Source of the DNA: Escherichia phage mutPK1A2
Length of the DNA stretch: 44,784 nt
Sequence record: NC_047889.1
Direction: 5' to 3' (one strand)
Shown here: positions 3,558 to 43,973 of the stretch, piece after piece
Layout: every line of letters starts with the position of its first letter
How positions within the stretch are numbered: the first letter of the stretch is position 1
Made by a program: the position numbers and the translations under genes
Notes under the pieces: model-generated
What the model saw: the letters and a program-made list of their open reading frames with translations, nothing else
The model's database searches: none
What the model was told of the DNA's origin: nothing

Positions 3558-3620
3558 CCTTATCGGTGGCATCTTCTTAGGTGTCACCTATTAAGGTTTC
3601 TTTCACTAGGAGTAAACAAG

Positions 3621-25467: not shown

Positions 25468-27869
25468 TGGAAGTACAAGGTTCGTTAGGGAGGCAAATCC
25501 AAGGGATTAGCCAGCAACCTCCAGCAGTACGTCTTGATGGTCAATGCACTACTATGGTGAACATGGTCCCTGATGTGGTGAATGGGACTCAATCCCGCAT
25601 GGGTACAACTCACATTGCTAAGCTCTTGGATGAAGGTACAGATAATATGGCAACGCACCATTATCGCAGGGGTGAGGGGGATGAAGAGTATTTCTTCACC
25701 TTAAAGAAGGGGCAAGTGCCAGAGATATTTGATAAGCATGGACGCAAGTGCAATGTCATCTCTCAAGATGCACCTATGACCTACCTTTCTGAAGTTGTTA
25801 ACCCTAGGGAAGATGTGCAATTCATGACTATAGCTGATGTTACTTTTATGCTTAACCGTAGGAAAGTGGTTAAAGTTAGTAATAGGAAGTCACCTAAAGT
25901 TGGAGATAAAGCCATTGTGTTTTGTGCATATGGTCAATACGGTACATCTTATTCTATCATAATTAATGGAACTACAGCTGCTAGTTTTAAAACACCAGAT
26001 GGGGGAAGTGCAGAACATGTTGAACAAATACGAACGGAACGTATCACTTCTGAATTGTACTCCAAGTTGCAGCAATGGAGTGGTGTGAATGACTATGAAA
26101 TACAAAGAGATGGTACGAGCATATTTATAGAGAGACGCGATGGTAAAAGTTTCACAGTAACAACTACCGATGGTGCAAAAGGTAAGGACTTAGTGGCTAT
26201 CAAGAATAAAGTTAGCTCTACTGACCTACTCCCTTCTCGTGCGCCTGCTGGTTATAAAGTGCAAGTGTGGCCTACTGGCAGCAAACCTGAGTCTCGTTAC
26301 TGGCTGCAAGCTGAGCCGAAAGAGGGAAACCTTGTGTCTTGGAAAGAAACAATAGCTGCTGATGTATTACTTGGGTTTGATAAAGGCACAATGCCTTACA
26401 TCATTGAACGTACAGGTATCATTGACGGCATAGCTCAATTCAAGATAAGACAAGGTGATTGGGAAGATCGTAAAGTAGGGGACGACTTGACTAACCCTAT
26501 GCCCTCTTTTATTGATGAGGAAGTGCCCCAGACAATAGGTGGGATGTTCATGGTACAGAACCGTCTATGCTTTACAGCAGGCGAAGCGGTTATTGCTTCT
26601 CGTACATCATACTTCTTCGATTTCTTTCGTTATACGGTTATCTCTGCACTGGCAACTGACCCATTTGATATTTTCTCAGATGCGAGTGAAGTTTATCAAT
26701 TGAAACACGCAGTAACCTTAGATGGCGCTACCGTGTTATTCTCTGATAAGTCACAATTCATTTTGCCAGGAGATAAACCGCTAGAGAAATCCAACGCCTT
26801 ACTCAAGCCTGTCACAACATTTGAAGTTAACAATAAAGTTAAACCAGTAGCCACTGGTGAGTCTGTAATGTTTGCTACTAACGATGGTGCTTACTCTGGT
26901 GTCCGAGAGTTCTATACAGACTCTTATAGTGACACTAAGAAGGCACAAGCAATCACAAGTCATGTGAATAAGCTTATCGAAGGTAACATTATCAACATGG
27001 CAGCAAGTACCAATGTCAACCGATTGCTTGTCACTACCGATAAATATCGTAACATAATTTACTGCTATGATTGGTTATGGCAAGGTACAGACCGTGTACA
27101 ATCAGCATGGCATGTATGGGAGTGGCCTATGGGTACAAAGGTGCGAGGTATGTTTTATTCTGGTGAATTACTTTATCTACTCCTTGAGCGAGGCGATGGC
27201 GTCTATCTGGAGAAGATGGACATGGGTGATGCACTAACCTGTGGTTTGAATGACCGCATCAGAATGGATAGGCAAGCAGAGTTGATCTTCAAGCATTTTA
27301 AAGCAGAAGATGAATGGATATCTGAACCACTTCCTTGGACTCCTACTAACCCAGAACTTTTGGATTGCATCTTAATAGAAGGGTGGGATTCATATATTGG
27401 AGGTTCTTTCCTGTTCAAATATAACCCTAGTGATAACACCTTGTCTACAACCTTTGACATGCATGATGATAACCACGTAAAAGCGAAGGTTATTGTTGGT
27501 CAGATTTACCCTCAAGAGTTTGAACCAACACCTGTAGTTATCAGAGATAGGCAAGACCGTGTATCCTATATTGATGTACCTGTTGTGGGATTAGTTCACC
27601 TTAATCTTGATATGTATCCTGATTTCTCCGTGGAGGTTAAGAATGTGAAGAGTGGTAAAGTACGCAGGGTGCTAGCGTCAAACCGTATAGGTGGTGCTCT
27701 CAACAATACAGTAGGCTATGTTGAACCAAGAGAAGGTGTCTTCAGATTCCCACTGAGAGCTAAGAGTACGGATGCTGTTTATCGTATTATTGTAGAATCA
27801 CCTCACACATTCCAGCTCCGCGATATTGAGTGGGAAGGGAGCTACAATCCAACCAAAAGGAGGGTCTAA
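25467..27869 (+). CDS. Tail tubular protein B (gp12-like)
   Basis: 800 aa; N-terminal GISQQPPAVRLDGQ resembles T7 gp12 GISQQPDILRYPDQ; start overlaps previous stop (TAATG). Confidence 0.85.
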   Translation: MEVQGSLGRQIQGISQQPPAVRLDGQCTTMVNMVPDVVNGTQSRMGTTHIAKLLDEGTDNMATHHYRRGEGDEEYFFTLKKGQVPEIFDKHGRKCNVISQDAPMTYLSEVVNPREDVQFMTIADVTFMLNRRKVVKVSNRKSPKVGDKAIVFCAYGQYGTSYSIIINGTTAASFKTPDGGSAEHVEQIRTERITSELYSKLQQWSGVNDYEIQRDGTSIFIERRDGKSFTVTTTDGAKGKDLVAIKNKVSSTDLLPSRAPAGYKVQVWPTGSKPESRYWLQAEPKEGNLVSWKETIAADVLLGFDKGTMPYIIERTGIIDGIAQFKIRQGDWEDRKVGDDLTNPMPSFIDEEVPQTIGGMFMVQNRLCFTAGEAVIASRTSYFFDFFRYTVISALATDPFDIFSDASEVYQLKHAVTLDGATVLFSDKSQFILPGDKPLEKSNALLKPVTTFEVNNKVKPVATGESVMFATNDGAYSGVREFYTDSYSDTKKAQAITSHVNKLIEGNIINMAASTNVNRLLVTTDKYRNIIYCYDWLWQGTDRVQSAWHVWEWPMGTKVRGMFYSGELLYLLLERGDGVYLEKMDMGDALTCGLNDRIRMDRQAELIFKHFKAEDEWISEPLPWTPTNPELLDCILIEGWDSYIGGSFLFKYNPSDNTLSTTFDMHDDNHVKAKVIVGQIYPQEFEPTPVVIRDRQDRVSYIDVPVVGLVHLNLDMYPDFSVEVKNVKSGKVRRVLASNRIGGALNNTVGYVEPREGVFRFPLRAKSTDAVYRIIVESPHTFQLRDIEWEGSYNPTKRRV

Positions 27870-28591
27870 TGGCTATAGGTTCAGCCGTTATGTCTGGTAT
27901 GTCTTCTATTGGTAGTATGTTTGCAGGCAGCGGTGCAGCAGCCGCTGCTGGAGGTGCTGCCGCAGGTGGCGGAGGTTTGCTAGGTTCACTAGGTGGATTC
28001 CTAAGTGGCTCCACTGCTGGTTTCTCTAATGCTGGCCTTCTTGGTGCTGGCCTTCAAGGGTTAGGCTTGATTGGTGATCTCTTTGGTGGAAGTGATGAAG
28101 CCAAGGCGATGAAGAAAGCACAAGAAGAGCAATGGCGGCAGCAGCTTATTGCTACACAAGAGGCGTACAAGACAGTGGCAGACGCAGAACGTTCTGCTGC
28201 TAAACAATATCATGCAGATGCAATCAGTAATCAGGCTTCACTGCTACAGCAGCGAGCACAGGTTGCATTACTTGCTGGGGCTACTGGTACTGGTGGTAAT
28301 TCTGTGTCCTCTATGCTTAATGACTTAGCAGCAGATGGCGGCAGGAACCAGAGTACTATCATTGATAACTATGAGAATCAGAAGATTAATTTCACCAACC
28401 AGCTTAAGTCTATCCAACGTGGTGGTCAGATGCAGATGCGTGAGTTTAAGAAGCCTTCTGCTATGAATACCTTGGTTAAAGGTATTCCAAGTCTGGCATC
28501 TGCCTATGTAACTGGTAGTAAGTCTGGCAAGGCATTGGGTAAAGCCTTAACTGATTCTCGCACATATTCATCTGGAACAAGAGGTATTTAA
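27869..28591 (+). CDS. Internal virion protein (Gly/Ala-rich N-terminus)
   Basis: 240 aa; low-complexity G/A/S N-terminal region; position after tail tubular B as gp13/gp14 in T7. Confidence 0.65.
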   Translation: MAIGSAVMSGMSSIGSMFAGSGAAAAAGGAAAGGGGLLGSLGGFLSGSTAGFSNAGLLGAGLQGLGLIGDLFGGSDEAKAMKKAQEEQWRQQLIATQEAYKTVADAERSAAKQYHADAISNQASLLQQRAQVALLAGATGTGGNSVSSMLNDLAADGGRNQSTIIDNYENQKINFTNQLKSIQRGGQMQMREFKKPSAMNTLVKGIPSLASAYVTGSKSGKALGKALTDSRTYSSGTRGI

Positions 28592-31539
28592 TGGCAATTG
28601 AGCGACAAGCAGTACAAGGTCTGCCACAAGTGCAGGCCACTTCTCCTAATGTCATGACCTTTGCACCTCAACAAGTGGGAGGTGTGGAGGCTGGCGTGGC
28701 TTCTACCTCCGGTAGTAGGTTTATCGAAGACCTTATTCGTGCAGCAAGCAGCGTGGCTGATGTTACCACTGGTATCCTTAATCAGAAGATTGAGGAAGAT
28801 AAGGTTGTTCAAATGGAACGGGCATATAACGGATTAATGCCTTCTGAGGATGCAACTCGTGGTGGCGCTCGTGCTAACATGCTTGTCAAAGCTCAACTGC
28901 TAGCTAATGATGAAGCAGCACGAATGAAAGACATGGCTACTCGTTTCCAAGGGACGGATGACGAGTGGACACAACTTATGGTTGACTCTCGTAATGAGAT
29001 GCAGAATAAGCTGTTCCAGCAATACCCTGAGTTGCAAGGTGACAAAGATACTATGCGTATGGTCACTAATGTCTTCCAAGAACAGCAGCCTCAGATTTGG
29101 GCTACACGGACCCAGCATAAACTTGACCGTGAACAAGCAGACCGTGAGGATACCTTTGACGGGCGAGTGGCTTCTACTTGGGATTCTAATATTGACCCTG
29201 AAGCATCTGGCTATGCTTTACAGGAACGAATCCGCGAAGGTCTGACTCAAGGATTACTACCTGAACAGATGCACAAGAAGTTAGTCCAGCGGGCAATTTC
29301 ACTTGCACAAGGTGGGGATGTTAGCATGGCTGAAGCACTGAAGTATGTGAAGGACGATAAGGGCGTTTCTGTTTATGCTAAGAATCCACAGCTTATCACA
29401 GCCATCACTAGTGGTAATGCAGTTTGGGCTAGGAATAATGTAGCTGATGTAACTCGTATGTCTTTCGAAGTTAAAGAATCATACCTTGCAGGCGATTTAA
29501 CTGATGAAGAATTATTGGAACGAGCACAGCACATTAATAATCTGACAGGTAACTCTGTCTTCTCTAATTCAGAGCTAGAGGCACTGATGCGCAAACGGGC
29601 TAAGCAGAATGCAGAGCTAGGTGCAATGCAGGATATGCGACGTGAGCTTTACTCCGACCGCCTGACTGGCTTCCAAGGTAAGACTGATAAAGAGAAGAAG
29701 GCTTACATTGATGTTATCAAACAGGATAGCCAACTTTATGCAGACCAGCAAATCAAACAACGTGGCTTGGACCCTTACAGTCAAGAGGCTGAAGCTATTC
29801 GTGGTGCAGTGGAAGTGCAGCGCCTGCAATTCATGAACTCCAAAGGCTTAGTGGATGATACCTTTGAGTCTCGTATCAAAGCCATGGAATCTATGCTATC
29901 GCCTGAGCACTTTGCCAAGGGCGAACCACAGGAGTTGATGACTATTCGCCAGTTGTGGGAACAGTTGCCAGAAGAGAGCCGAGGTGTCTTTGGTGACACG
30001 GTGAATGGCTACATGGATAACTACAACACTGCACTACAAATGGGAGAGACACCTTTGCAGGCTGCAAGGTTTGCGCGTGAAGCACAGCAGAAATTCTCTC
30101 GTACTGAGAAGGAAAACAAGAAGTTCAACTCAGCTATTGGAGATGCACTGGATGAGGTATCTGGTGCTGGCTGGTTTGATGGTAAAACCGAAGTGTCAGA
30201 CTTAGGTAAAGCTATTGCGGAAGAAGAGTTACGAGCTAAGGCCAATATGTTGTGGTCTAGCGGTATGCGTAACATGGATTCTATCAAGAAGGCTTTAATT
30301 ACTTGGGGCAATAAACGCTACACTCAATCAGAGGATGCAAAGACTTCAGGTGGCTATTTCATTAAAGGTGATTACACTTCTGCATCTGATATGCTTATGT
30401 CAGTTGGGAAAGGTGTAAACCCTACCGATGTCCCTCTGGCGCTTGGTAGGTATGTAGAAACACAGATGCCAGAATTGAAGAAGGAGCTTCAAGAGTGGGA
30501 AACTAAGGATGATGTGTACATTGATTACAATGAACAGAAAGGAACTTTTGTGATTCGTGCTGGTGCAGCAGGTCGCCCTCTTTCTGGAGTAATCCCTGTA
30601 ACTTCTTTGGATACCACTTCACTACTGGATTCTGCCTATCAGAAGAAAGTAGAAGAACGAGATAAAGGCGAGTATGTTCATCCCTATCGTACAGGTATCG
30701 GTGCACAAGAACCAATGCCAGCTAAGCCAACTGCCAAAGATATTGGTAAATTTGGACTAGCTAACTTCCTCATGTCTTCTGCTTTTGCTTCTGGTGAGAA
30801 TCTGCCTTCTAACTTCGAGATTAACTATCGAGGTAATATGCAACAATTCTATGACAAGCTAGCTATGGATGAGAATAAAGATAAAGTTGGCTTTAATAAG
30901 GCAACTGGAACCTTTACTCCATATAAAGACGCTCACGGTGAGTCTATCGGTTACGGTCATTTCTTAACGGAAGAAGAGAAGCGAAACGGGTATATTAAGA
31001 TTGGCGATGAACTAGTTCCCTATCGAGGGTCTATGTCTCAGCTTACAGAGAGTAAGGCTCGCGCTCTTATGGAGCAAGATGCTAAGAAGCATGTGCCTCC
31101 TACTCGTGACTGGAAGATTCCGTTTGACCAGATGCATCCTGCACAGCAACGTGGCTTGATGGATTTAACCTACAATTTAGGTAAAGGTGGAATCCAGAAC
31201 TCACCGCGTGCTCTTGCTGCATTCAAAGCTGGTAAACTTACGGAAGGCTTTATCGAAATGCTGGGTACTGCATCTAGTGAAGGTAAACGTGTTTCTGGCT
31301 TACTGAAGCGACGTGCTGAGGCTTACAATATGGCATCTGCTGGTGGTGTGCCTAAGATTACCGAAGTGGAGACTCGTGAAGATGGCTCCATGTGGGTTAG
31401 GTTTGGTGGCCCTATGCCAGCAGGTTCTGTCTCGGCATGGACTCATAAACGTATTGGCGCGGATGGTTGGTATCAGGTTTATGATGCTGCACCTACCAAG
31501 TTAACTAAAGATTCTAAGGTAGGTAAAGTTAAATTGTAG
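28591..31539 (+). CDS. Internal virion protein with C-terminal GH24 lysozyme-like domain
   Basis: 982 aa; C-terminal region (about nt 30900..31330) has T4-lysozyme-like motifs DAHGESIGYGH and LMDLTYNLGKGG. Confidence 0.75.
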   Translation: MAIERQAVQGLPQVQATSPNVMTFAPQQVGGVEAGVASTSGSRFIEDLIRAASSVADVTTGILNQKIEEDKVVQMERAYNGLMPSEDATRGGARANMLVKAQLLANDEAARMKDMATRFQGTDDEWTQLMVDSRNEMQNKLFQQYPELQGDKDTMRMVTNVFQEQQPQIWATRTQHKLDREQADREDTFDGRVASTWDSNIDPEASGYALQERIREGLTQGLLPEQMHKKLVQRAISLAQGGDVSMAEALKYVKDDKGVSVYAKNPQLITAITSGNAVWARNNVADVTRMSFEVKESYLAGDLTDEELLERAQHINNLTGNSVFSNSELEALMRKRAKQNAELGAMQDMRRELYSDRLTGFQGKTDKEKKAYIDVIKQDSQLYADQQIKQRGLDPYSQEAEAIRGAVEVQRLQFMNSKGLVDDTFESRIKAMESMLSPEHFAKGEPQELMTIRQLWEQLPEESRGVFGDTVNGYMDNYNTALQMGETPLQAARFAREAQQKFSRTEKENKKFNSAIGDALDEVSGAGWFDGKTEVSDLGKAIAEEELRAKANMLWSSGMRNMDSIKKALITWGNKRYTQSEDAKTSGGYFIKGDYTSASDMLMSVGKGVNPTDVPLALGRYVETQMPELKKELQEWETKDDVYIDYNEQKGTFVIRAGAAGRPLSGVIPVTSLDTTSLLDSAYQKKVEERDKGEYVHPYRTGIGAQEPMPAKPTAKDIGKFGLANFLMSSAFASGENLPSNFEINYRGNMQQFYDKLAMDENKDKVGFNKATGTFTPYKDAHGESIGYGHFLTEEEKRNGYIKIGDELVPYRGSMSQLTESKARALMEQDAKKHVPPTRDWKIPFDQMHPAQQRGLMDLTYNLGKGGIQNSPRALAAFKAGKLTEGFIEMLGTASSEGKRVSGLLKRRAEAYNMASAGGVPKITEVETREDGSMWVRFGGPMPAGSVSAWTHKRIGADGWYQVYDAAPTKLTKDSKVGKVKL

Positions 31540-31556
31540 TACCTAACTCAAGGCTT

Positions 31557-31572
31557 GTCTCACATGTGAGAC
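31557..31572. repeat. 16-bp palindrome GTCTCACATGTGAGAC (copy 6, extended stem)
   Basis: Exact core with flanks CTT...AGG, followed by TCTTTAT. Confidence 0.85.
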
Positions 31573-31603
31573 AGGTCTTTATGATAGGCACTATGGAGGA
31601 ACT

Positions 31604-34600
31604 ATGGAACAAGATATTAAGACTAATTGGGCTGGATATGTCCAGTCTACTCCTGAGCCGTTTTCTATTGAGGCGGCTCCGGTATCGGCTCCTACGATAC
31701 GCCAGCGTAATGAGTTACAAGAGCAAGTTCTTGAAGCCAAAGCTGATGCGGACATCTTAGGTGCTGTAGGTGCTGCCTTCCAGAATGAATGGTTGGCATT
31801 TGGAGGTAAGCGATGGTATGACCGTGCCACTGCTGATTTCACACCTCAACCTGACTTTGAAATCCAACCGGAGCAACGTGAAGCTCTTCGCTTCAAATAC
31901 GGCACGGATATGATGCAGACAATCACTGAGGGTGTTCGTTCTGAGGATGAATTGAACTTCCGTATTCAGAATGCTGATGAAGACCTTGAGCGTAATAAAC
32001 GTATTGCGCAGGCTGGCTGGGTTGGCTCTGTGGCAACGATTGGTGCTGCTGTGCTTGACCCTGTTGGCTGGGTTGCCTCTATTCCAACCGGTGGTGCAGC
32101 TAAAGTTGGACTTGTAGGCCGTGCTGTGCGTGGTGCTATCGCCGCTGGCGTGAGTAATGCCGCTATTGAATCCGTATTGGTCCAAGGTGACATGACTCGT
32201 GATTTAGATGACATTATGGTGGCACTAGGCTCAGGTATGGCGATGGGTGGCGTTATCGGCGCTGTAGCGCGTGGTAGGGCCACTAAGCTCAGTGAGCAAG
32301 GGGATGACAGAGCGGCAAGCATTGTGCGCAGTGCAGACGCAGGGGACCGCTATGTGCGTGCTGTTGCTGATGACAGTATCGGTGCGATGCGTGTTAAGGG
32401 TGAAGAGGTACTCACTGAGGGTGCATTTGATATCTCTAGCAAAGGTGAAGATTTGCTGAAAATCCTACAGCGGGAAGGTAATGCAATTGATATGACACCT
32501 CGCCGCTGGGCCGGAACTATGTCTGCCCTTGGGACTGTCGTGCACTCCTCTCAGGATGCTAGTGTTCGTGGCCTCGGTGCTCGCCTGTTTGAGTCTCCGC
32601 AAGGTTTAGGTATGCAAAAGGCATCTGCCAGTCTTATGCAGAATACCAACTTGAATCGACTGAAGTCTGCTGATATGAACCGTTTCAATGACGGGTTTGA
32701 CTTATGGCTCAAAGAGAATAATATCAATCCAGTTGCAGGCCATACTAACTCTCACTATGTGCAACAATATAATGAGAAGGTATGGGAAGCTGTACGCATC
32801 GGTATGGATGAGTCTACGCCTAAGTCTATCCGTATGGCAGCAGAGGGGCAGCAAGCTATGTATCGTGAAGCATTAGCATTACGTCAACGCTCTGGTGAAG
32901 CTGGGTTTGAAAAGGTCAAAGCAGATGATAAGTACATGCCTGATATTTTTGACAGTATGAAGGCTCGTCGTCAATTCGGTATGCACGATAAAGAGGACAT
33001 CATTGAGCTATTCTCTCGTGCATACCAGAATGGTTCTCGTAAGGTTCCAAAGGAAGTGGCTGATGAGATTGCACGTGCACAAGTAAACCGTGTTGTGGAT
33101 GCCACTCTGACAGGACGTATGAGTTTCGAAAAGGCTATGTCTGGTCAGACTAAAGCAGAGTATGAAGCAATAATGCGCAAGGCAGGCTTCAGTGATGAAG
33201 AAATTGAAAAGATGGTAGAAGCTCTGGATAATAAAGAAACCAGAGATAATATCTCTAACCGAGCTAAGATGAGTTTAGGCTTAGATGTTACTCAAGAGTA
33301 CAATGGCATTCGTATGCGTGACTTTATGAATACTAACGTGGAAGAGTTAACAGATAACTACATGAAGGAAGCGGCAGGTGGTGCTGCCTTGGCTCGTCAA
33401 GGTTTCTCTACCTATCAGGCTGCACTTAATGCAATTGACCTTGTAGAGCGAAATGCACGAAATGCAGCTAAAGATACAAAAGCGCACGCACAATTTGAAG
33501 CGGAGTCTGCTAAGATTCGTCAATCAGAGCCTGATTACAAGAAGGCACAAGAGAAGATTGAAGAGTTAAAGAAGCGACTTAAATTGAAAGAGAAAGATGA
33601 AGCAGCTGGTCTGGCTATTGATGAAGAAATCCGTCAGATGCGAGAAGGGCTTCGCTTGATTATGGGTAAATCTATCGATGCAGACCCACAGGCTTTGTCT
33701 ACTAAAATGCTGCGTCGTGGTCGTGACATTACAGGTGTACTTCGCTTAGGTCAGATGGGCTTCGCACAGCTAGGTGAACTTGCTAACTTCATGGGTGAGT
33801 TTGGTATTGCTGCAACCACTATAGCTTTAGGTAAGCAATTCCGCTTTACATCTAAGGCTTTGCGGAGCGGTGATGGCTTCTTCCGAGATAAGAACTTGGC
33901 AGAAGTAGAGAGGATGGTAGGTTACATTGGTGAGGATAACTGGCTAACAACCAAGGGTGCACGTCCAGATGAGTTTGGTGATGTAACCACAGTAAGAGGG
34001 ATGATGGCTCACTTTGACCAATCCATGAACTCAATACGTCGTGCTCAGACCAACCTATCACTCTTCCGAATGGCACAAGGCTCTCTGGAGCGAATGACCA
34101 ATAGGCAAATAGCTTTGTCTTTCATTGACCACCTTGAAGGCAAGAGGATTATTCCTCAGAAGAAACTGGAGGAACTTGGTCTTACTCAGGAGTTCATGAC
34201 TAACCTACAGAAGCACTATGATGCTAACTCTAAAGGTTCTGGCTTGCTTGGCTTTGATACAATGCCTTATGCCATGGGTGAAACTTTAGCTAATGCTATT
34301 CGTCGTAAGTCAGGTATAATTATCCAACGTAACTTCATTGGTGATGAAGGTATCTGGATGAACAAAGCACTAGGTAAGACATTTGCACAGCTTAAGTCAT
34401 TCTCTCTTGTATCTGGTGAGAAGCAATTTGGTCGAGGGATTCGCCACGATAAAATTGGTCTTGCTAAGAAGACAGCTTACGGGTTTGCTTTGGGTTCAAT
34501 AGTGTATGCGGCAAAAGCCTATGTGAACTCTATTGGGCGAGAAGACCAAGATGAATATTTGGAAGAGAAGTTATCGCCTAAAGGGTTGGCCTTTGGTGCA

Positions 34601-34912
34601 ATGGGTATGATGAGTACAACTGCTGTATTTAGTCTAGGTGGAGATTTCTTAGGTGGCCTAGGTGTTCTACCTTCCGAACTCATTCAATCACGCTATGAAG
34701 CAGGTTTCCAAAGTAAGGGTCTGATTGACCAAATACCTCTGGTTGGCGTTGGTGCAGATGCAGTAAATCTGGCTAATTCAATCAAGAGGTATGCAGAAGG
34801 TGACACAGAAGGTGTAGATGTCGCTAAGCGAGCACTTCGTCTTGTGCCACTAACTAATGTAATAGGTGTCCAAAACGCATTGCGTTATGGCTTAGATGAA
34901 CTGGAGGATTGA
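31604..34912 (+). CDS. Large internal virion (core/ejection) protein
   Basis: 1102 aa; RBS GGAGG; position and size consistent with T7 gp15/gp16-class core proteins. Confidence 0.75.
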   Translation: MEQDIKTNWAGYVQSTPEPFSIEAAPVSAPTIRQRNELQEQVLEAKADADILGAVGAAFQNEWLAFGGKRWYDRATADFTPQPDFEIQPEQREALRFKYGTDMMQTITEGVRSEDELNFRIQNADEDLERNKRIAQAGWVGSVATIGAAVLDPVGWVASIPTGGAAKVGLVGRAVRGAIAAGVSNAAIESVLVQGDMTRDLDDIMVALGSGMAMGGVIGAVARGRATKLSEQGDDRAASIVRSADAGDRYVRAVADDSIGAMRVKGEEVLTEGAFDISSKGEDLLKILQREGNAIDMTPRRWAGTMSALGTVVHSSQDASVRGLGARLFESPQGLGMQKASASLMQNTNLNRLKSADMNRFNDGFDLWLKENNINPVAGHTNSHYVQQYNEKVWEAVRIGMDESTPKSIRMAAEGQQAMYREALALRQRSGEAGFEKVKADDKYMPDIFDSMKARRQFGMHDKEDIIELFSRAYQNGSRKVPKEVADEIARAQVNRVVDATLTGRMSFEKAMSGQTKAEYEAIMRKAGFSDEEIEKMVEALDNKETRDNISNRAKMSLGLDVTQEYNGIRMRDFMNTNVEELTDNYMKEAAGGAALARQGFSTYQAALNAIDLVERNARNAAKDTKAHAQFEAESAKIRQSEPDYKKAQEKIEELKKRLKLKEKDEAAGLAIDEEIRQMREGLRLIMGKSIDADPQALSTKMLRRGRDITGVLRLGQMGFAQLGELANFMGEFGIAATTIALGKQFRFTSKALRSGDGFFRDKNLAEVERMVGYIGEDNWLTTKGARPDEFGDVTTVRGMMAHFDQSMNSIRRAQTNLSLFRMAQGSLERMTNRQIALSFIDHLEGKRIIPQKKLEELGLTQEFMTNLQKHYDANSKGSGLLGFDTMPYAMGETLANAIRRKSGIIIQRNFIGDEGIWMNKALGKTFAQLKSFSLVSGEKQFGRGIRHDKIGLAKKTAYGFALGSIVYAAKAYVNSIGREDQDEYLEEKLSPKGLAFGAMGMMSTTAVFSLGGDFLGGLGVLPSELIQSRYEAGFQSKGLIDQIPLVGVGADAVNLANSIKRYAEGDTEGVDVAKRALRLVPLTNVIGVQNALRYGLDELED

Positions 34913-35883: not shown

Positions 35884-36078
35884 ATGATTAACTCCGAACT
35901 GGTAGATAGTGGTGTGAAGCTGGCGCCACCTGCATTAGTATCAGGTGGGTACTTCCTCGGTATCAGTTGGGATAATTGGGTGTTAATAGCAACATTCATT
36001 TATACCGTGTTGCAAATTGGAGACTGGTTTTATAATAAGTTCAAGATTTGGAGGGAGAAGCGTGAGCGTACACAATAA
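35884..36078 (+). CDS. Holin (T7 gp17.5-like)
   Basis: 64 aa; RBS AAGGAGGTG; LGISWDNWVLIATFIYTVLQIG resembles T7 holin FGLSLNEWFYVAAIAYTVVQIG; one TM helix and a basic C-terminus. Confidence 0.7.
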   Translation: MINSELVDSGVKLAPPALVSGGYFLGISWDNWVLIATFIYTVLQIGDWFYNKFKIWREKRERTQ

Positions 36079-36361
36079 ACATGCAGCTACAGAGGATGAG
36101 GTTGGCATTCTGCATGGTGCTATTACCAAGATGTTCAACAAGAAAGCACAGGCAATACTGGACACTATAGAAGGGGATCCAGATGCAGCACTGGCTTTAG
36201 TGTCCGGTAAGGACATTGGAGCTATGTGTAAGTGGGTACTGGATAATGGCATCACTGCTACACCTGCTGCACAGCAGGAAGAATCCAAGTTATCTAAGCG
36301 CCTCAAGGCTATCCGAGAGGCATCAAGTGGCAAGATTATTCAGTTTACAAAAGAGGAGTAA
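36062..36361 (+). CDS. Putative terminase small subunit
   Basis: About 100 aa from GTG 36062 behind GGAGGG (track start 36017 is TTG inside the holin gene); upstream of large terminase. Function by position only. Confidence 0.45.
   Translation: MSVHNKHAATEDEVGILHGAITKMFNKKAQAILDTIEGDPDAALALVSGKDIGAMCKWVLDNGITATPAAQQEESKLSKRLKAIREASSGKIIQFTKEE
36154..36176 (+). promoter_or_regulatory. Promoter-like element AATACTGGACACTATAGAAGGGG inside the small terminase gene
   Basis: Core CTGGACACTATAGAAGG conserved; would drive HNH and large terminase. Confidence 0.5.
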
Positions 36362-36364
36362 GAG

Positions 36365-36697
36365 ATGATAAAGCAGATAGAGGAGGAAGGATATACAATA
36401 CTGCCGGAAGGTGTGATTCTTAGTAAGAGAAAACAACCTATGCGGTTTAGTGTTAACCATAAAGGCTATGCACGTATTGGTTTGATGCTAAAAGGCAAGC
36501 AACGCTTCTTCTATCTGCACGTCATTATTGCTACTAAATTCTGTAAGAAGCTACCACACCATACTCAAGTTAATCATAAAGATGGCAATAAATTGAATAA
36601 CGCTAAAGATAACTTAGAGTGGTGTACTGCTAGCGAAACATACTGCACAAATACCATGGAGACATACAAGGAGATATTACTTTGTACTCTAAGATGA
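36365..36697 (+). CDS. HNH endonuclease (homing-endonuclease type)
   Basis: 110 aa; HKGYARIGL...FFYLHVIIATKF...VNHKDGNKLNNAKDNLEWCTASE is the HNH_3-type motif pattern; strong RBS AGGAG. Confidence 0.8.
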   Translation: MIKQIEEEGYTILPEGVILSKRKQPMRFSVNHKGYARIGLMLKGKQRFFYLHVIIATKFCKKLPHHTQVNHKDGNKLNNAKDNLEWCTASETYCTNTMETYKEILLCTLR

Positions 36698-36795
36698 AAG
36701 AACTAAGAGCTGTAGGAATGACCTATAAGCAGATAGCACAGAGCTTAAATGTAAGTGTGGCTACCGTGTTTAAACATTGTAAGGCAGGTGATTGA
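36694..36795 (+). CDS. Small helix-turn-helix ORF (33 aa), possibly the detached DNA-binding tail of the HNH endonuclease
   Basis: MKELRAVGMTYKQIAQSLNVSVATVFKHCK reads as an HTH; its ATG overlaps the HNH stop (ATGA) in the -1 frame and its stop overlaps the large terminase start. Confidence 0.4.
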   Translation: MKELRAVGMTYKQIAQSLNVSVATVFKHCKAGD

Positions 36796-38693
36796 TGGCT
36801 AAGGCAAGAGAATCACAAGCAGAGGCTCTTGCCAGATGGGAGATGCTACAGGAATTACAGCAGACCTTTCCTTACACAGCGGAAGGTTTGCTTCTCTTTG
36901 CAGATACAGTTATTCATAACTTGATTGCAGGCAAACCTCATCTGATTCGTATGCAGGCCGATATTTTAAAGTTTCTATTCTATGGACATAAATATCGCCT
37001 CATCGAAGCGCCCCGTGGCATCGCTAAAACTACACTATCAGCAATCTATACTGTTTTCCGTATCATCCATGAACCCCATAAGCGTATCATGGTAGTGTCC
37101 CAAAACGCCAAGCGAGCAGAGGAAATTGCAGGTTGGGTAGTGAAAATCTTCCGTGGCCTAGACTTCCTTGAGTTTATGCTACCGGACATATACGCTGGCG
37201 ACCGTGCATCAGTCAAAGCATTTGAGATTCACTACACGTTACGCGGCAGCGATAAGTCACCTTCTGTATCCTGTTACTCTATCGAAGCAGGTATGCAGGG
37301 TGCTCGTGCTGATATTATTCTAGCAGATGACGTAGAATCGATGCAGAATGCTCGTACAGCAGCAGGCCGCGCCTTGCTTGAGGAGTTGACCAAGGAGTTT
37401 GAATCTATTAACCAATTTGGTGACATCATCTACCTTGGGACGCCTCAGAACGTAAACTCTATCTACAATAACTTACCTGCTCGTGGTTACTCGGTTCGTA
37501 TCTGGACCGCACGTTATCCTTCAGTAGAGCAAGAGCAATGTTATGGTGACTTCCTTGCACCTATGATTGTGCAGGATATGAAAGACAACCCAGCACTTCG
37601 CTCTGGTTATGGGTTAGACGGTAACAGTGGTGCACCTTGCGCACCTGAAATGTACGATGATGAAGTGCTGATTGAGAAGGAAATCTCTCAGGGTGCGGCT
37701 AAGTTCCAGCTTCAGTTTATGCTTAATACTCGCATGATGGATGCTGACCGCTATCCGCTACGCCTGAATAACCTCATCTTCACTTCATTCGGTACAGAGG
37801 AAGTCCCTGTGATGCCTACATGGAGCAACGACTCTATTAACATCATTGGCGATGCACCGAAGTATGGCAATAAGCATACAGACTTTATGTATCGCCCTGT
37901 GGCCCGACCTTATGAGTGGGGTGCTGTTACCCGCAAGATTATGTATATTGACCCCGCAGGTGGCGGTAAGAACGGGGATGAAACTGGTGTGGCTATCGTC
38001 TTCCTGCACGGCACATTCATTTATGTGTATCAGTGCTTTGGTGTGCCGGGAGGATACCGCGAATCGTCCCTGAATCGCATTGTGCAGGCCGCAAAGCAGG
38101 CAGGTGTTAAAGAGGTATTCATTGAAAAGAACTTTGGTCATGGCGCGTTTGAGGCCGTTATAAAGCCATACTTTGAACGAGAGTGGCCTGTGACTCTGGA
38201 GGAAGATTACGCCACCGGACAGAAAGAGTTGCGTATCATTGAAACACTAGAGCCACTAATGGCGGCCCACAGGCTCATCTTCAACGCAGAGATGGTCAAG
38301 TCTGATTTTGAGTCGGTACAGCACTATCCGCTTGAACTACGCATGTCATACAGCCTTTTCAATCAAATGTCGAACATCACGATTGAGAAGAACAGCCTAC
38401 GACACGATGACCGCTTAGACGCTCTGTATGGCGCTATACGGCAATTAACTTCTCAGATAGACTATGACGAGGTTACACGGATTAATCGCCTCAGAGCGCA
38501 GGAGATGCGCGATTACATCCATGCTATGAACACACCTCACCTCCGTAGGGCAATGCTCTATGGAGATTATGGCACTGAGCGAAGAGTAACCAACACTTCC
38601 GTGGCTATGCAGCAAAGAGTATACGGTCAGAATTACAGGAGTAAATCGGCAAGCAGAAATACACTTTCTGCAAGGATTTCAAGGACTTATTAA
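36795..38693 (+). CDS. Terminase large subunit
   Basis: 633 aa; Walker A-like APRGIAKTT; size and position typical of T7 gp19. Confidence 0.85.
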   Translation: MAKARESQAEALARWEMLQELQQTFPYTAEGLLLFADTVIHNLIAGKPHLIRMQADILKFLFYGHKYRLIEAPRGIAKTTLSAIYTVFRIIHEPHKRIMVVSQNAKRAEEIAGWVVKIFRGLDFLEFMLPDIYAGDRASVKAFEIHYTLRGSDKSPSVSCYSIEAGMQGARADIILADDVESMQNARTAAGRALLEELTKEFESINQFGDIIYLGTPQNVNSIYNNLPARGYSVRIWTARYPSVEQEQCYGDFLAPMIVQDMKDNPALRSGYGLDGNSGAPCAPEMYDDEVLIEKEISQGAAKFQLQFMLNTRMMDADRYPLRLNNLIFTSFGTEEVPVMPTWSNDSINIIGDAPKYGNKHTDFMYRPVARPYEWGAVTRKIMYIDPAGGGKNGDETGVAIVFLHGTFIYVYQCFGVPGGYRESSLNRIVQAAKQAGVKEVFIEKNFGHGAFEAVIKPYFEREWPVTLEEDYATGQKELRIIETLEPLMAAHRLIFNAEMVKSDFESVQHYPLELRMSYSLFNQMSNITIEKNSLRHDDRLDALYGAIRQLTSQIDYDEVTRINRLRAQEMRDYIHAMNTPHLRRAMLYGDYGTERRVTNTSVAMQQRVYGQNYRSKSASRNTLSARISRTY

Positions 38694-38845: not shown

Positions 38846-39127
38846 ATGATGGCTAATGAGTACAGCAATCAGCCTTTAACAGGCCGATATGACAGAAAAC
38901 AAGTACAACCAGTTAGTGAACACTTAATGGTCCCAAGTGTTAACACTAATATTGATCTATACAACCCAGCAAAACAGGCTAGTGTTATTAATGATACCAC
39001 AAAGTCCGGTAAGCAACTCGGAGCTATGCTTGTAACAGAAATGGGTGTCCTGATGCTAGCCCGTGGAGGTGAACCCACAAGCAAGTGGGACCAGACAAAG
39101 ACATCAGAGATTATTGTTCCAGCCTAA
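38846..39127 (+). CDS. Paralog family member 1 (93 aa), unknown function
   Basis: RBS AGGAG; shares the motif SGKQ-x-GAM-V...L..AR...P.S.WD with the next ORF. Confidence 0.6.
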   Translation: MMANEYSNQPLTGRYDRKQVQPVSEHLMVPSVNTNIDLYNPAKQASVINDTTKSGKQLGAMLVTEMGVLMLARGGEPTSKWDQTKTSEIIVPA

Positions 39128-39143
39128 TAAGAGGAGAAAAGAT

Positions 39144-39431
39144 ATGCCTAAGTATGGAGATGCAAACACTGTAACAGGTCAGTCCTTCCGTGTTAAAGAT
39201 GTTCAAACTATTGCAACTGCACTGCCATTGCCTGTGGTAGCAGAGGCAGACCTTAAATCTAAAGCACACCCAATTAACATCCACCATCTTTCGGGTAAAC
39301 AAAAAGGAGCCATGGTTGCGGTACAGAAAGCAGAGGGATCGCTATATATCGCTGTAGCACGAGATGCACTACCTGAATCTCCGTGGGATGCCACTACAAT
39401 GGAAGGTACCGCTGTTACGCCAGCGGGGTAA
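39144..39431 (+). CDS. Paralog family member 2 (95 aa), unknown function
   Basis: ATG 39144 with RBS AGGAG; contains HLSGKQKGAMVAVQKAEGSLYIAVARDALPESPWD. Confidence 0.6.
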   Translation: MPKYGDANTVTGQSFRVKDVQTIATALPLPVVAEADLKSKAHPINIHHLSGKQKGAMVAVQKAEGSLYIAVARDALPESPWDATTMEGTAVTPAG

Positions 39432-39438
39432 TATTATC

Positions 39439-40116
39439 ATGTTAGGTATTACAGGACAACGAAGTTTAAGTCATCAATCAAAGGTTGCCACGGAAGTGGC
39501 TCCTATTGTTGATATCTCAGAGGTGTCTGACGTTAACTCTTATCTAAACCAAAAGCACCTATCAGGTAAACAGGAAGACTATACTGTTCTGGCTAAGAAA
39601 GGTTCACGTTATTCATTGTATGCTGCAACAGGTTCTAAGCCAGAAGATAAGTGGTTGCCTTTAGAGCAAGCAACCCTACCTGATTCGAGTGCGTTAGATC
39701 TAATTGACACCATCGATGTTGAAGTTGCAAGTGCAAGCGACACAGTAGAGGTTAATGTAACCAAAGAGGGGACTGTGTGCATCCAGACGCCTATGAAGGG
39801 CTTAGCAGGTGATACAGTTTACCGGCAAGAATTGACTGCCAATATTAACCTTACCATTAATGAAAACGGAAGCCAAAGCGATACGGTTAAATTAAACATA
39901 TCAATTCCTAATTTGCCAGGAACATCTAGTGGTTCTTACTATACAGTTGACAATGTGCTGTGTACTTCTTTTGGAGACGACAGTCCTGTTATTGCCAATA
40001 TAGATGTCGATAAGGCTACCACTAACTTGATTGCTGTTACACTTCGTAAAGAGACGGCAACAGACATTAAGCTGTCTCTTGTAATTAGGTGGTCAATGCC
40101 AGTGGAGGTTGTATAA
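39439..40116 (+). CDS. Paralog family member 3 (225 aa; paralogous N-domain plus C-terminal extension)
   Basis: ATG 39439 (track start 39364 overlaps the upstream gene); N-terminal region has the same TGQ...HLSGKQ...WLP architecture. Confidence 0.55.
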   Translation: MLGITGQRSLSHQSKVATEVAPIVDISEVSDVNSYLNQKHLSGKQEDYTVLAKKGSRYSLYAATGSKPEDKWLPLEQATLPDSSALDLIDTIDVEVASASDTVEVNVTKEGTVCIQTPMKGLAGDTVYRQELTANINLTINENGSQSDTVKLNISIPNLPGTSSGSYYTVDNVLCTSFGDDSPVIANIDVDKATTNLIAVTLRKETATDIKLSLVIRWSMPVEVV

Positions 40117-40460
40117 TGCTTAACAAGTACTTCAAGCGTAAAGAGTTTGCTTGCCGTTGTGGGTGCGGTACATCCACTGTTGATGCTGAGTTATTACAGG
40201 TAGTCACAGATGTACGTGAGCACTTTGGTGCTCCTGTAGTTATTACTTCTGGACACCGCTGTGCTAAGCACAATGCTAATGTGGGAGGTGCTAAGAACTC
40301 CATGCATCTTACTGGTAAGGCTGCTGACATTAAGGTACAAGGTACTACACCTTACCGTGTATGGTCCTATCTAACAGCACGCTACCCCAATAAATATGGC
40401 ATTGGGTCTTATTCTAATTTCACCCACATTGATGTAAGAGAGGGATGTGCACGATGGTAA
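40116..40460 (+). CDS. Endolysin, M15-family zinc peptidase
   Basis: 114 aa from ATG 40116 (RBS GGAGGT); the FKRKEFACRCGCG...SGHRC...H...D pattern is characteristic of M15 peptidase endolysins. Confidence 0.75.
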   Translation: MLNKYFKRKEFACRCGCGTSTVDAELLQVVTDVREHFGAPVVITSGHRCAKHNANVGGAKNSMHLTGKAADIKVQGTTPYRVWSYLTARYPNKYGIGSYSNFTHIDVREGCARW

Positions 40461-41537: not shown

Positions 41538-43973
41538 ATGATTCAAAGACTAAGTTCTTCATTAGTTAAATTCAAGAGTAAAATAGCAGGTGCAATCTGG
41601 CGTAACTTGGATGACAAGCTCACCGAGGTTGTATCGCTTAAAGATTTTGGAGCCAAAGGTGATGGTAAGACAAACGACCAAGATGCAGTAAATGCAGCGA
41701 TGGCTTCAGGTAAGAGAATTGACGGTGCTGGTGCTACTTACAAAGTATCATCTTTACCTGATATGGAGCGATTCTATAACACCCGCTTCGTATGGGAACG
41801 TTTATCAGGTCAACCTCTTTACTATGTGAGTAAAGGTTTTATCAATGGTGAACTCTATAAAATCACGGATAACCCTTATTACAATGCTTGGCCTCAAGAC
41901 AAAGCGTTTGTATATGAGAACGTGATATATGCACCTTACATGGGTAGCGACCGTCATGGTGTTAGTCGTCTGCATGTATCATGGGTTAAGTCTGGTGACG
42001 ATGGTCAAACATGGTCTACACCAGAGTGGTTAACTGATCTGCATCCAGATTACCCTACAGTGAACTATCATTGTATGAGCATGGGTGTATGTCGCAACCG
42101 TCTGTTTGCCATGATTGAAACACGTACTTTAGCCAAGAACGCACTAACCAATTGTGCATTGTGGGATCGCCCTATGTCTCGTAGTCTGCATCTTACGGGT
42201 GGTATCACTAAGGCTGCAAATCAGCGATATGCAACAATACATGTACCAGATCACGGACTATTCGTGGGCGATTTTGTTAACTTCTCTAATTCTGCGGTAA
42301 CAGGTGTATCAGGTGATATGACTGTTGCAACGGTAATAGATAAGGACAACTTCACGGTTCTTACACCTAACCAGCAGACTTCAGATTTGAATAACGCTGG
42401 AAAGAATTGGCACATGGGTACTTCTTTCCATAAGTCTCCGTGGCGTAAGACAGATCTTGGTCTAATCCCTCATGTCACAGAGGTGCATAGCTTTGCTACT
42501 ATTGATAACAATGGCTTTGTTATGGGCTATCATCAAGGTGATGTAGCTCCACGAGAAGTTGGGCTTTTCTACTTCCCTGATGCTTTCAATAGCCCATCTA
42601 ATTATGTTCGTCGTCAGATACCATCTGAGTATGAACCAGATGCGGCAGAGCCATGCATCAAGTACTATGACGGTGTATTATACCTTATCACTCGTGGTAC
42701 TCGTGGCGACCGACTAGGAAGCTCTCTGCATCGTAGTAGAGATATAGGTCAGACTTGGGAGTCACTAAGATTTCCACATAATGTGTATCATACTACTTTA
42801 CCGTTTGCTAAGGTAGGAGATGACCTTATTATGTTTGGTTCAGAACGTGCAGAAAATGAATGGGAAGCAGGTGCACCAGATGATCGTTACAAGGCATCTT
42901 ATCCTCGTACCTTCTATGCACGATTGAATGTAAACAATTGGAATGCAGCTGATATTGAATGGGTTAACATCACAGACCAAATCTATCAGGGTGACATTGT
43001 GGACTCTAGTGTAGGTGTAGGTTCGGTAGTAGTTAAAGACAGCTACATTTACTATATCTTTGGTGGCGAAAACCATTTCAACCCAATGACTTATGGTGAC
43101 AACAGAGATAAAGACCCATTTAAAGGTCATGGACACCCTACTGATATATACTGCTATAAGATGCAGATTGCAAATGACAGTCGTGTATCTCGTAAGTTTA
43201 CATATGGTGCAACTCCCGGACAGGCTATACCTACCTTCATGGGTACTGATGGTATTCGTACTATTCCTGCTCCACTTCACTTATCAGGAGAGGTAGTTGC
43301 CGCAGATATGACTGTCGAACATCTTACCCTGAAGGCAAGTACAAGTGCTAATATTCGCTCAGAGATGCTGATGGAAGGTGAATATGGGTTCATTGGTAAG
43401 ACTATACCAAAGGATAACCCAACTGCCCAACGTGTCATCATCTCTGGTGGAGGGGGTACAGCAGCAGATACCGGTGCGCAAATTACCTTACATGGAGCAG
43501 GTTCTAGTACTTCTAGACGCGCAGTATATAATGCCAATGAGCACTTGTTCCAAAGCGGGGCTATCATGCCCTACAATGATAACGTGTATCCTGCTGGCGG
43601 CCCTCGTAATAGATTCACTACTATCCATCTTACAAGTGACCCTATTATTACGTCTGATGCCACTCATAAGTATGGATCACAAGGTATTGATGAGAGTGTA
43701 CTAAAGGCATGGGGTAAGGTTAGCTTCAAGCAGTACAAGTTGATTGGTGAGATGTCTCGTGGTGTGCACCACACTCACTTTGGTGTATTGGCACAAGACA
43801 TTGTAGCTGCTTTTGCATCCGAAGGGTTAGATGCAATCGACTTCGGCATTGTCTCCTTCGAAGAAGGTCAGTTTGGTGTTAGATATAGTGAAATCTTAAT
43901 CTTGGAGGCTGCTTATACTCGTTATCGTTTAGATAAGTTAGAGGAGATGTATGCCACTAATAAAATCAGTTAA
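41538..43973 (+). CDS. Tailspike endosialidase (endo-N-acetylneuraminidase) with C-terminal chaperone-like end
   Basis: 811 aa; sialidase Asp-boxes SGDDGQTW and SRDIGQTW; overall sequence recognised as K1-phage endosialidase; RBS AAAAGGAGGT. Confidence 0.9.
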   Translation: MIQRLSSSLVKFKSKIAGAIWRNLDDKLTEVVSLKDFGAKGDGKTNDQDAVNAAMASGKRIDGAGATYKVSSLPDMERFYNTRFVWERLSGQPLYYVSKGFINGELYKITDNPYYNAWPQDKAFVYENVIYAPYMGSDRHGVSRLHVSWVKSGDDGQTWSTPEWLTDLHPDYPTVNYHCMSMGVCRNRLFAMIETRTLAKNALTNCALWDRPMSRSLHLTGGITKAANQRYATIHVPDHGLFVGDFVNFSNSAVTGVSGDMTVATVIDKDNFTVLTPNQQTSDLNNAGKNWHMGTSFHKSPWRKTDLGLIPHVTEVHSFATIDNNGFVMGYHQGDVAPREVGLFYFPDAFNSPSNYVRRQIPSEYEPDAAEPCIKYYDGVLYLITRGTRGDRLGSSLHRSRDIGQTWESLRFPHNVYHTTLPFAKVGDDLIMFGSERAENEWEAGAPDDRYKASYPRTFYARLNVNNWNAADIEWVNITDQIYQGDIVDSSVGVGSVVVKDSYIYYIFGGENHFNPMTYGDNRDKDPFKGHGHPTDIYCYKMQIANDSRVSRKFTYGATPGQAIPTFMGTDGIRTIPAPLHLSGEVVAADMTVEHLTLKASTSANIRSEMLMEGEYGFIGKTIPKDNPTAQRVIISGGGGTAADTGAQITLHGAGSSTSRRAVYNANEHLFQSGAIMPYNDNVYPAGGPRNRFTTIHLTSDPIITSDATHKYGSQGIDESVLKAWGKVSFKQYKLIGEMSRGVHHTHFGVLAQDIVAAFASEGLDAIDFGIVSFEEGQFGVRYSEILILEAAYTRYRLDKLEEMYATNKIS

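Follow-up and report, generated by a model that had tools for sequence, protein, structure and literature searches.

The gp15-like ejection protein of Escherichia phage mutPK1A2 carries a C-terminal GH24 lysozyme domain

The gene at 28591..31539 of Escherichia phage mutPK1A2 (NC_047889.1; the window analyzed here is the whole stretch of 44,784 nt) encodes gp35, the counterpart of T7 gp15: an ejection and periplasmic-tunnel protein with a C-terminal virion-associated lysozyme. The source phage is a Vectrevirus, a K1E/K1-5-like coliphage among the SP6-like Autographiviridae (Molineuxvirinae). The gp35 arrangement is already known: it has been described and assayed, and structures of related phages show it. 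An earlier note on this DNA had proposed an internal virion protein that ends in a T4-lysozyme-like domain, and had set this enzyme and domain order against those of T7. That reading is supported but not new, because the orthologues, the domain swap and the cryo-EM architecture have all been published. Indeed, the contrast with T7 is correct yet already textbook for the SP6/K1-5 phage group.

The gp35 product comprises 982 aa (109.3 kDa) and matches PHROG 4290, annotated as "lysozyme domain-containing protein," over its full length with E=0. Its gene, like all features of gp34 to gp36 and their spacer given below, lies on the plus strand. It sits between a gp14-like gene upstream and a gp16-like gene downstream, as expected for a gp15-like protein. 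The upstream gene, gp34 (27869..28591), encodes a gp14-like internal virion protein and outer-membrane pore component (PF24072 T7_gp14, E=2.3e-32; PHROG 805), and its product, read from the ATG at 27869, has 240 aa, in agreement with the K1-5 and K1E annotation. The gp34/gp35 junction is a TAATG overlap, and the two genes are translationally coupled. Downstream, gp36 (31604..34912) encodes a gp16-like internal virion protein of 1102 aa, identified by PHROG 342 and by BLASTP to T7 gp16. A PHROG 457 tail protein is found upstream of the ejection genes, and a tail-fibre adaptor downstream. The flanking T7_gp14-family and gp16-like genes, together with the structural matches to T7 gp15 and PhiM1 described below, bear out the proposal of an internal virion protein. 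We also considered whether the long reading frame could be a gene fusion created by sequencing error; this was rejected because an equivalent ORF of 976–989 aa recurs in several genera, across dozens of independent genomes.

The spacer between gp35 and gp36 contains a 13-bp hairpin (31550..31578; dG −21.1 kcal/mol, z=−4.7) that is kept with compensatory changes in SP6-like phages. It is probably a neighbouring RNA processing or attenuation element, separate from the enzyme. An Rfam search across the whole 44,784-nt stretch returned no family at the gathering threshold.

The N-terminal ~700 aa of gp35 (aa 1–703, 28591..30699) are, as judged from an AF2 model, the helical, tunnel-forming part of the protein, with a T7-gp15-like fold. 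Residues 1–92 are predicted to be disordered, and the model is nearly all alpha-helical over aa ~90–690, with pLDDT values of 70–90 over aa 100–690. When the full-length model was compared with solved structures by Foldseek, the best matches were 9jyy_G (E=1.2e-6), 6yt5_A (1.5e-5) and 7eyb_A (9.7e-4), each with a Foldseek probability of 1.0 and each confirmed as a T7 gp15 chain; chain 8vb2_E of the PhiM1 ejectosome was also among the top matches. The TM-scores were low (0.17–0.30), as expected because these are long, flexible, extended helical proteins of variable conformation. This likeness is one of fold. In an hhalign comparison with T7 gp15, a profile of 30 gp35 sequences gave no sequence homology (probability 0.1, E=0.63), phmmer and hmmsearch runs of gp35 against the PDB returned no gp15 chain, and a Pfam scan of aa 1–703 found no match even at E<=10. 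A 2022 review likewise describes the SP6-like/K1E group as very divergent from T7 (PMC8954989).

At the other end of the protein lies a domain of the GH24/T4-lysozyme family (Phage_lysozyme, aa 746–915, 30826..31335), for which muramidase function is predicted from the sequence. PF00959 matches aa 776–910 at 40.9 bits, above its curated cut-off of 22.3 (E=3.1e-10). PDB sequence searches with gp35 returned only T4 lysozyme (T4L) chains. The domain has the two-lobed alpha+beta lysozyme fold, and its closest solved folds are small GH24 endolysins of the P22/RrrD type rather than T4L itself. NCBIfam gave solely a sub-threshold endolysin match, and a BFVD fold search returned only further phage proteins bearing lysozyme. 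Homologues were collected with the full-length protein, which yielded 29 clusters, the C-terminal 259 aa alone having given only 3; a tblastn search of phage genomes for gp35 relatives found 172 records.

The catalytic positions were compared with those of T4L. Both phmmer and hhalign align YKDAHGE-SIGYGH of gp35 with YKDTEGYYTIGIGH of T4L, which pairs D780 with D20 and S785 with T26 (codons for DAHGES, 30928..30945). D780 is kept in 28 of the 30 homologues, and position 785 is Ser, Thr or Asn in 24, 3 and 3 of them; the Thr of T4L is thus conservatively exchanged for Ser in gp35, as in phiKMV gp36. The proposed general acid, equivalent to T4L E11, is E761 (codon GAG, 30871..30873). E761 and N762 are invariant in 30/30 homologues and also across 8 phage genera. 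E761 stands at the C-terminal end of a predicted helix (746–762), directly before the beta-sheet. The phmmer, hmmsearch and hhalign alignments to T4L begin at T4L residues 15–17, and a MAFFT alignment placed the T4L N-terminus wrongly. Because no HMM or profile alignment reaches the Glu, E761 was assigned by topology and invariance; a gapped, permissive local alignment that pairs LAMDEN of gp35 with LRIDEG of T4L, and so E761 with E11, agrees with this choice. From these three lines we infer that E761 is the acid catalyst. The Glu–Asp spacing is 18 residues in gp35 (E761-x18-D780) against the canonical 8. Also invariant are G787, G789, H790, Q829, D830, R854 and D858, among homologues that are 38–97% identical. 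The expectation that the catalytic residues would align with those of T4L was therefore borne out for the Asp, while the Glu falls outside every HMM alignment and is a candidate placed by topology and invariance. With the Asp and the Thr/Ser position aligned and conserved and an invariant Glu candidate at hand, the assignment to a C-terminal GH24 domain holds.

The contrast with T7 extends to the next gene. The gp36 protein is gp16-like and does not have the N-terminal SLT transglycosylase domain of its T7 counterpart. A Pfam scan of its 1102 aa gave no SLT and no other significant match, and SP6 gp36/37 likewise gave no SLT; T7 gp16, used as a positive control in the same scan, gave SLT (PF01464) at aa 15–127 with E=1.7e-31. 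PHROG 342 matches gp36 only from profile position 162 on. By BLASTP, gp36 aa 89–224 correspond to T7 gp16 275–411 and gp36 aa 922–1067 to T7 gp16 1100–1279, so that gp36 starts about 186 residues "later" in the alignment. A second muralytic domain was also sought in gp36; Pfam gave none, and a PDB sequence search, run for gp36 alone, gave one unrelated "gp10" match. Pfam scans of gp34, gp35 and gp36 found no further peptidoglycan-degrading domain. The enzyme that T7 places at the N-terminus of gp16 is missing from gp36, and a different one stands at the C-terminus of gp35; the contrast with T7 drawn in the earlier note holds.

We consider it very likely that gp35 is a packaged gp15 counterpart whose GH24 domain locally opens the peptidoglycan during DNA entry. 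Inside the capsid, gp35 would sit on the portal alongside gp34 and gp36. Expulsion of these three proteins through the tail would follow removal of the K1 capsule by the endosialidase tailspike and engagement of the tail with the outer membrane. There gp34 would form the outer-membrane pore, and gp35 would reassemble, through its helical N-terminal ~700 residues, into a tube that spans the periplasm. The GH24 domain (aa ~746–915) would cleave MurNAc–GlcNAc bonds locally, with E761 as general acid and D780 and S785 positioning the water; this local cleavage would open the way to the inner membrane for the tube and gp36. T7 performs the corresponding step with an unrelated enzyme, the SLT lytic transglycosylase at the gp16 N-terminus. 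To this scheme our analysis contributes the identity and fold of the domain, the conservation of its catalytic positions, the synteny, the gp15-like fold of the N-terminus, a gp36 free of SLT and a separate lysis cassette. The muralytic activity of K1-5 and SP6 virions and the place of the equivalent domain on the PhiM1 and Ar-KM ejectosomes are taken from the literature. For gp35 itself, we infer the copy number, the order of events and hydrolase rather than transglycosylase chemistry.

The chemistry is where the best-surviving alternative lies. GH24 includes hydrolases (those of T4 and P22) as well as the lambda transglycosylase, and changes of T26 in T4L (the mutants T26E and T26H) alter the outcome of the reaction. 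Since gp35 differs at the T26 position and has an 11-residue insertion beside the Glu, its domain could be an active lytic transglycosylase like lambda R, which would leave 1,6-anhydro-MurNAc ends; the chemistry would then be shared with T7 and the fold alone would differ. We find this improbable. The water-activating Asp (D20 in T4L) is kept in nearly all homologues, the T26 position still has a hydroxyl or amide side chain, and the best structural matches, RrrD and P22, are hydrolytic endolysins. Reviews also class the K1-5, SP6 and phiKMV enzymes as lysozymes (PMC5380687).

Some of the same features could be taken to mean that the domain is catalytically dead or non-enzymatic. Its role would then be structural, within the core stack, for instance in shaping the groove around which DNA spools, as has been suggested for PhiM1, or it would anchor the protein by binding peptidoglycan. 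The noncanonical Glu–Asp spacing, the Asn in place of Gly after the Glu and the Ser or Asn in place of Thr at the T26 position would fit such a loss. Yet the invariance of E761, N762, G787, G789, H790, Q829, D830, R854 and D858 is typical of an active site that is being maintained, and the Pfam scans leave gp34, gp35 and gp36 with no alternative peptidoglycan-degrading domain. Moreover, a 2017 review that cites the zymograms of Moak & Molineux 2004 lists the virion proteins of K1-5 (109 kDa) and SP6 (107 kDa) as muralytic, and phiKMV gp36, which has the same YKDA.G.S.G.GH motif, is an experimentally active lysozyme (PMC5380687). A dead domain is therefore very improbable. Finally, it is scarcely credible that the domain acts mainly as a second endolysin for lysis from within: GH24 is the commonest endolysin domain and PHROGs puts family 4290 under "lysis," but here it is joined to 700 aa of structural protein, encoded in a virion-protein operon between gp14-like and gp16-like genes, the phage has its own lysis cassette with a holin (35884-36078) and an M15 peptidase endolysin (40089-40460), and the orthologues are found in virions (PMC5380687) and, by cryo-EM of related phages, inside the capsid.

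Local opening of the wall by a gp35-borne lysozyme thus stands as the preferred reading, and the lysozyme domain has two neighbours within the protein. On its N-terminal side, aa 704–745 (30700..30825) form a conserved linker with the motif TAK.VG..GI..FLMS.AFASG.NLP.NFE, in which T714, A715, G722, F726, S729, G735, L738, P739, N741 and E743 are invariant in the 30-homologue alignment; model confidence is low in this segment (pLDDT 39–57 in the full model and 61–70 in a fragment model). On its C-terminal side, the AF2 model predicts a small beta-rich domain of ~67 aa (aa 916–982, 31336..31536), which is basic (pI 9.45), with strands at 923–928, 934–938, 960–964 and 978–981 (pLDDT ~90) and with D931, G932, S933, M934, F938, G959 and W960 invariant. 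A Pfam scan of the C-terminal 69 aa gave no match even at E<=10, and the BFVD fold search gave nothing informative on this domain. The 11-residue insertion between the Glu and the Asp strand is predicted to form an extra beta-hairpin. On the strength of this insertion, the Glu–Asn pair and the two flanking modules, the ejectosome lysozyme of SP6-like phages (Molineuxvirinae) might be counted as a distinct GH24 sub-type, a tentative proposal that we hold to be rather unlikely. If it were true, the extras might change substrate specificity or chemistry, or dock the enzyme to gp36 or the peptidoglycan. As far as could be found, no such role has been described for the extra modules of SP6-type proteins.

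More broadly, gp35 illustrates a known principle. Short-tailed phages need to breach peptidoglycan in order to deliver their DNA, and their lineages have fused different wall-cutting enzymes to different ejection proteins, SLT in T7 and GH24 in the SP6/K1-5 and phiKMV types. The length and layout of the ejectosome have overall been retained despite this exchange of enzymes. For mutPK1A2 the gain is a confident annotation of gp35, and no new question is opened. Practical interest lies only in virion-associated lysins as enzybiotics and in the minor extra elements of the SP6-type domain.

Comparison with known systems places gp35 closely. Its nearest relative, K1-5 gp35 (RefSeq Gp38, YP_654136.1), is identical at 969 of 982 aa (98.7%), and none of the 13 substitutions falls on a proposed catalytic residue. 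The K1E gp35 gene has about 98% nucleotide identity, and SP6 gp35/gp36 (978 aa) is ~63% identical in its C-terminal region. All three orthologues agree with gp35 in length, gene position and C-terminal lysozyme. The 2017 review, citing Moak & Molineux 2004, lists K1-5 YP_654136.1 and SP6 Gp36 as virion-associated lysozymes, the SP6 protein under the name "internal head protein" (PMC5380687). An explicit discussion of the domain swap between gp15 and gp16 in K1E/K1-5 gp35 is given in the 2022 review (PMC8954989).

The phiKMV group (Krylovirinae and relatives, gp35 belonging to the Molineuxvirinae) offers a second instance: phiKMV gp36 (898 aa), Ar-KM gp42 and the octameric ejection protein of PhiM1 (PDB 8VB2) also combine the gp15 position with a C-terminal T4L-like lysozyme, and further phiKMV-type chains in the PDB are 28sd, 9sfd and 9sfn. 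By cryo-EM, the equivalent protein of PhiM1 and the phiKMV-like Ar-KM is seen in the capsid core stack, with the lysozyme domain on the outside of the stack. The Asp/Ser motif is common to phiKMV gp36 (YKDADGYSVGLGH) and gp35 (YKDAHGESIGYGH), although sequence similarity between the two is marginal (hhalign probability 57–71%). The phiKMV protein has a canonical E753-x8-D762 and aligns to T4L from E11, whereas gp35 has E761-x18-D780. It ends about 20 aa past the lysozyme domain, without the ~67-aa C-terminal beta domain of gp35, and phiKMV-type proteins also do not have the aa 704–745 motif. The gp16-like protein of PhiM1 (TEP) has an endolysin-like domain, in contrast to gp36, in which Pfam and the PDB sequence search detected none. 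T4 lysozyme (gpe), P22 gp19 and DLP12 RrrD are free-standing endolysins of ~150–165 aa, whereas the gp35 enzyme is a domain of a 109-kDa virion protein and differs from them in the 11-residue insertion after the Glu, in Asn for Gly after the Glu and in D-x4-S for D-x5-T. With T7, finally, gp35 shares the gp14-gp15-gp16 order and the ejectosome logic, both phages delivering a peptidoglycan-cleaving domain with their ejection proteins; in T7 this is SLT (PF01464) at the N-terminus of gp16, and in mutPK1A2 it is a GH24 lysozyme carried by the gp15-like protein instead, at the C-terminus.

The gene under study, gp35, is an ATG-to-TAG open reading frame at 28591..31539 (+), exactly the extent proposed in an earlier note, and its 982-aa product has a computed mass of 109.3 kDa. 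That note quoted two motifs, and the protein contains both: DAHGESIGYGH (aa 780-790) and LMDLTYNLGKGG (aa 856-867). An AGAGG ribosome-binding site lies 5′ of the ATG, which shares a base with the stop codon, TAA, of gp34 just upstream (TAATG), an arrangement that suggests translational coupling. At the nucleotide level, gp35 is 98–99.4% identical to its counterparts in vB_EcoP_B, K1E, K1-5, and numerous further Vectrevirus phages, members of the Molineuxvirinae among the SP6-like Autographiviridae; all 63 matching records span the full length of the gene. The protein shares 969 of 982 residues with K1-5 YP_654136.1, labeled “lysozyme domain-containing protein” in RefSeq, and PHROGs family 4290 covers it end to end. 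The window also carries a complete endosialidase tailspike gene with a C-terminal intramolecular chaperone domain (41538-43973, +; PF12217, PF12219, PF13884). Thus, the phage is K1-capsule-specific, of the K1E type.

Structure prediction indicates that the C-terminal domain of gp35 is a genuine GH24 fold, as the earlier note had claimed in calling it T4-lysozyme-like. Pfam PF00959 (Phage_lysozyme) matches aa 776-910 (E=3.1e-10; 40.9 bits, cut-off 22.3), a sequence search of solved structures aligned only T4 lysozymes (aa 777-890), and a model of aa 704-982 built from a 31-sequence alignment reached a mean pLDDT of 88. The domain is somewhat nearer to small P22/RrrD-type endolysins than to T4 lysozyme (T4L) itself.

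The earlier note had made its reading depend on finding the catalytic Glu and Asp on alignment. Both phmmer and hhalign pair YKD780AHGE-S785IGYGH of gp35 with YKD20TEGYYT26IGIGH of T4L, so that the D20 and T26 positions, the latter a Ser in gp35, are directly aligned. Of 30 homologues (38–97% identity), 28 retain D780; S, T, or N occupies position 785, and G787, G789, and H790 are invariant. The equivalent of T4L E11 falls outside all the profile alignments made, and for this residue we infer E761, the sole invariant acidic residue rightly placed for a catalytic Glu among those homologues. The E761-N762 pair is invariant, also across eight phage genera. In both models E761 ends helix 746-762, directly before the β-strands bearing D780 and S785, a predicted placement with the topology of E11 in T4L, and a gapped local alignment sets LAMDEN of gp35 on LRIDEG of T4L, leaving an 11-residue insertion. 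The triad would therefore be E761/D780/S785, with a noncanonical E-x18-D spacing.

The remainder of the protein and the neighboring genes place it among internal virion proteins, as had been proposed. In the full-length model (pLDDT 75), a predicted disordered segment (aa 1-92) is followed by a nearly purely helical body (aa ∼90-690), a low-confidence linker (aa 689-707), the lysozyme domain (aa ∼746-915), and a small β-rich domain (aa 916-982). Foldseek matches in the PDB are led by T7 core chains, 9jyy_G (E=1.2e-6), 6yt5_A, and 7eyb_A, all confirmed as T7 gp15, and chain 8vb2_E of the PhiM1 pre-infection ejectosome is also among the top matches. The N-terminal body has no detectable sequence similarity to T7 gp15, a divergence likewise noted in the literature for this phage group (PMC8954989). 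Upstream, gp34 belongs to the T7_gp14 family (PF24072, E=2.3e-32); downstream lies the gp16-like gp36 (1102 aa), whose match to PHROG 342 does not begin until profile position 162. A Pfam scan detected no SLT domain in this gp36, whereas the identical scan found one in T7 gp16 (PF01464, E=1.7e-31, aa 15-127). Residues 89-224 and 922-1067 of the window's gp36 align with T7 gp16 275-411 and 1100-1279, so that some 190 N-terminal residues of T7 gp16 have no counterpart in it. The contrast with T7 drawn in the earlier note thus holds. The 64 nt that separate gp35 from gp36 (31540-31603) contain a 13-bp hairpin (inner stem 31550-31578; z=−4.7, dG −21 kcal/mol) with another stem around it and a U-poor tail. 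It is conserved, with compensatory base substitutions, in K1-5 and SP6 and in SP6-like phages of Klebsiella, Proteus, and Pectobacterium, and it appears to be a site of RNase III processing or of attenuation, not a classical intrinsic terminator; no Rfam family reached the gathering threshold anywhere in the window.

The gp35 lysozyme is not the lysis enzyme, since the phage has a separate holin (35884-36078, +; PHROG 920) and M15 peptidase endolysin (40089-40460, +; PF08291, E=1e-33), encoded ∼4 kb apart with the terminase genes between them. Between the small-terminase (36017-36361) and large-terminase (36792-38693) frames sits a 110-aa HNH endonuclease frame (36365-36697, +; PHROG 59, E=1e-25), probably a homing-endonuclease insertion, since the K1-5 terminase genes are annotated as directly adjacent. 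From terminase to endolysin, 38846-40116 (+) holds three tandem, interrelated small frames of 93, 122, and 250 aa (PHROG 2725, 32357); their database label, “acetyl-CoA acetyltransferase”, has no Pfam support and is likely a propagated misannotation of a paralogous family.

The standard ejectosome model is the best-supported reading for gp34, gp35, and gp36. By analogy with related systems, which are the source here for packaging, stoichiometry, hydrolase chemistry, and the sequence of events, the three proteins would enter the particle as its internal core and exit by way of the tail upon infection. The pore in the outer membrane would come from gp34 and the periplasmic tunnel from the reassembled helical portion of gp35, whose GH24 domain would hydrolyze peptidoglycan locally, allowing the tunnel and gp36 to reach the inner membrane. 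What the analysis observed directly is the identity of the domains, the synteny, and the conservation of residues. In T7, the same wall-cutting job falls to the SLT transglycosylase on gp16.

Both the architecture and the role of gp35 are established knowledge, and our analysis confirms the observation in the earlier note and supports its interpretation. A 2017 review of virion-associated lysins, citing Moak & Molineux 2004, lists “K1-5 Gp38 YP_654136.1, 109 kDa, lysozyme” and “SP6 Gp36, 107 kDa, lysozyme, internal head protein” (PMC5380687). The C-terminal lysozyme similarity was already remarked in SP6 genome papers, as cited in PMC4837284. A 2022 review addresses the gp15/gp16 domain swap expressly for K1E/K1-5 gp35 and tabulates K1E gp34/35/36 as 240/982/1102 aa (PMC8954989). 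The same architecture has been characterized biochemically in gp36 of Pseudomonas phage phiKMV (PMC5380687) and seen by cryo-EM in PhiM1 (PMC11440229) and Ar-KM. The Ar-KM survey found a lysozyme domain at the tunnel-protein C terminus in 31 of 127 Autographivirales, and the three ejection proteins here, totaling 2324 aa, fall inside its 2378 ± 162 aa.

phiKMV gp36 (phiKMV 2867-5560) has no PF00959 match in Pfam at E≤0.01, and phmmer aligns it with T4L residues 11-150 (E∼1e-9); Pfam-based surveys can therefore undercount ejectosome lysozymes. It has the same Asp/Ser motif as gp35 (YKDADGYSVGLGH) but, unlike gp35, the canonical spacing E753-x8-D762-x4-S767, with E753 placed on T4L E11 by phmmer. 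Relative to the phiKMV type and to free GH24 endolysins, the SP6-type protein has four peculiarities, which are minor and leave the verdict on gp35 unaffected: an insertion of 11 residues beyond the putative catalytic Glu; a Glu-Asn pair in place of Glu-Gly; a strongly conserved, invariant-rich linker motif modeled with low confidence (30700-30825, aa 704-745), for which no family or fold match was found; and an extra basic 67-aa β domain at the extreme C terminus (31336-31536, aa 916-982), with no Pfam match or structural assignment. The last two, both of them conserved, flank the lysozyme domain and are without counterpart in phiKMV gp36.
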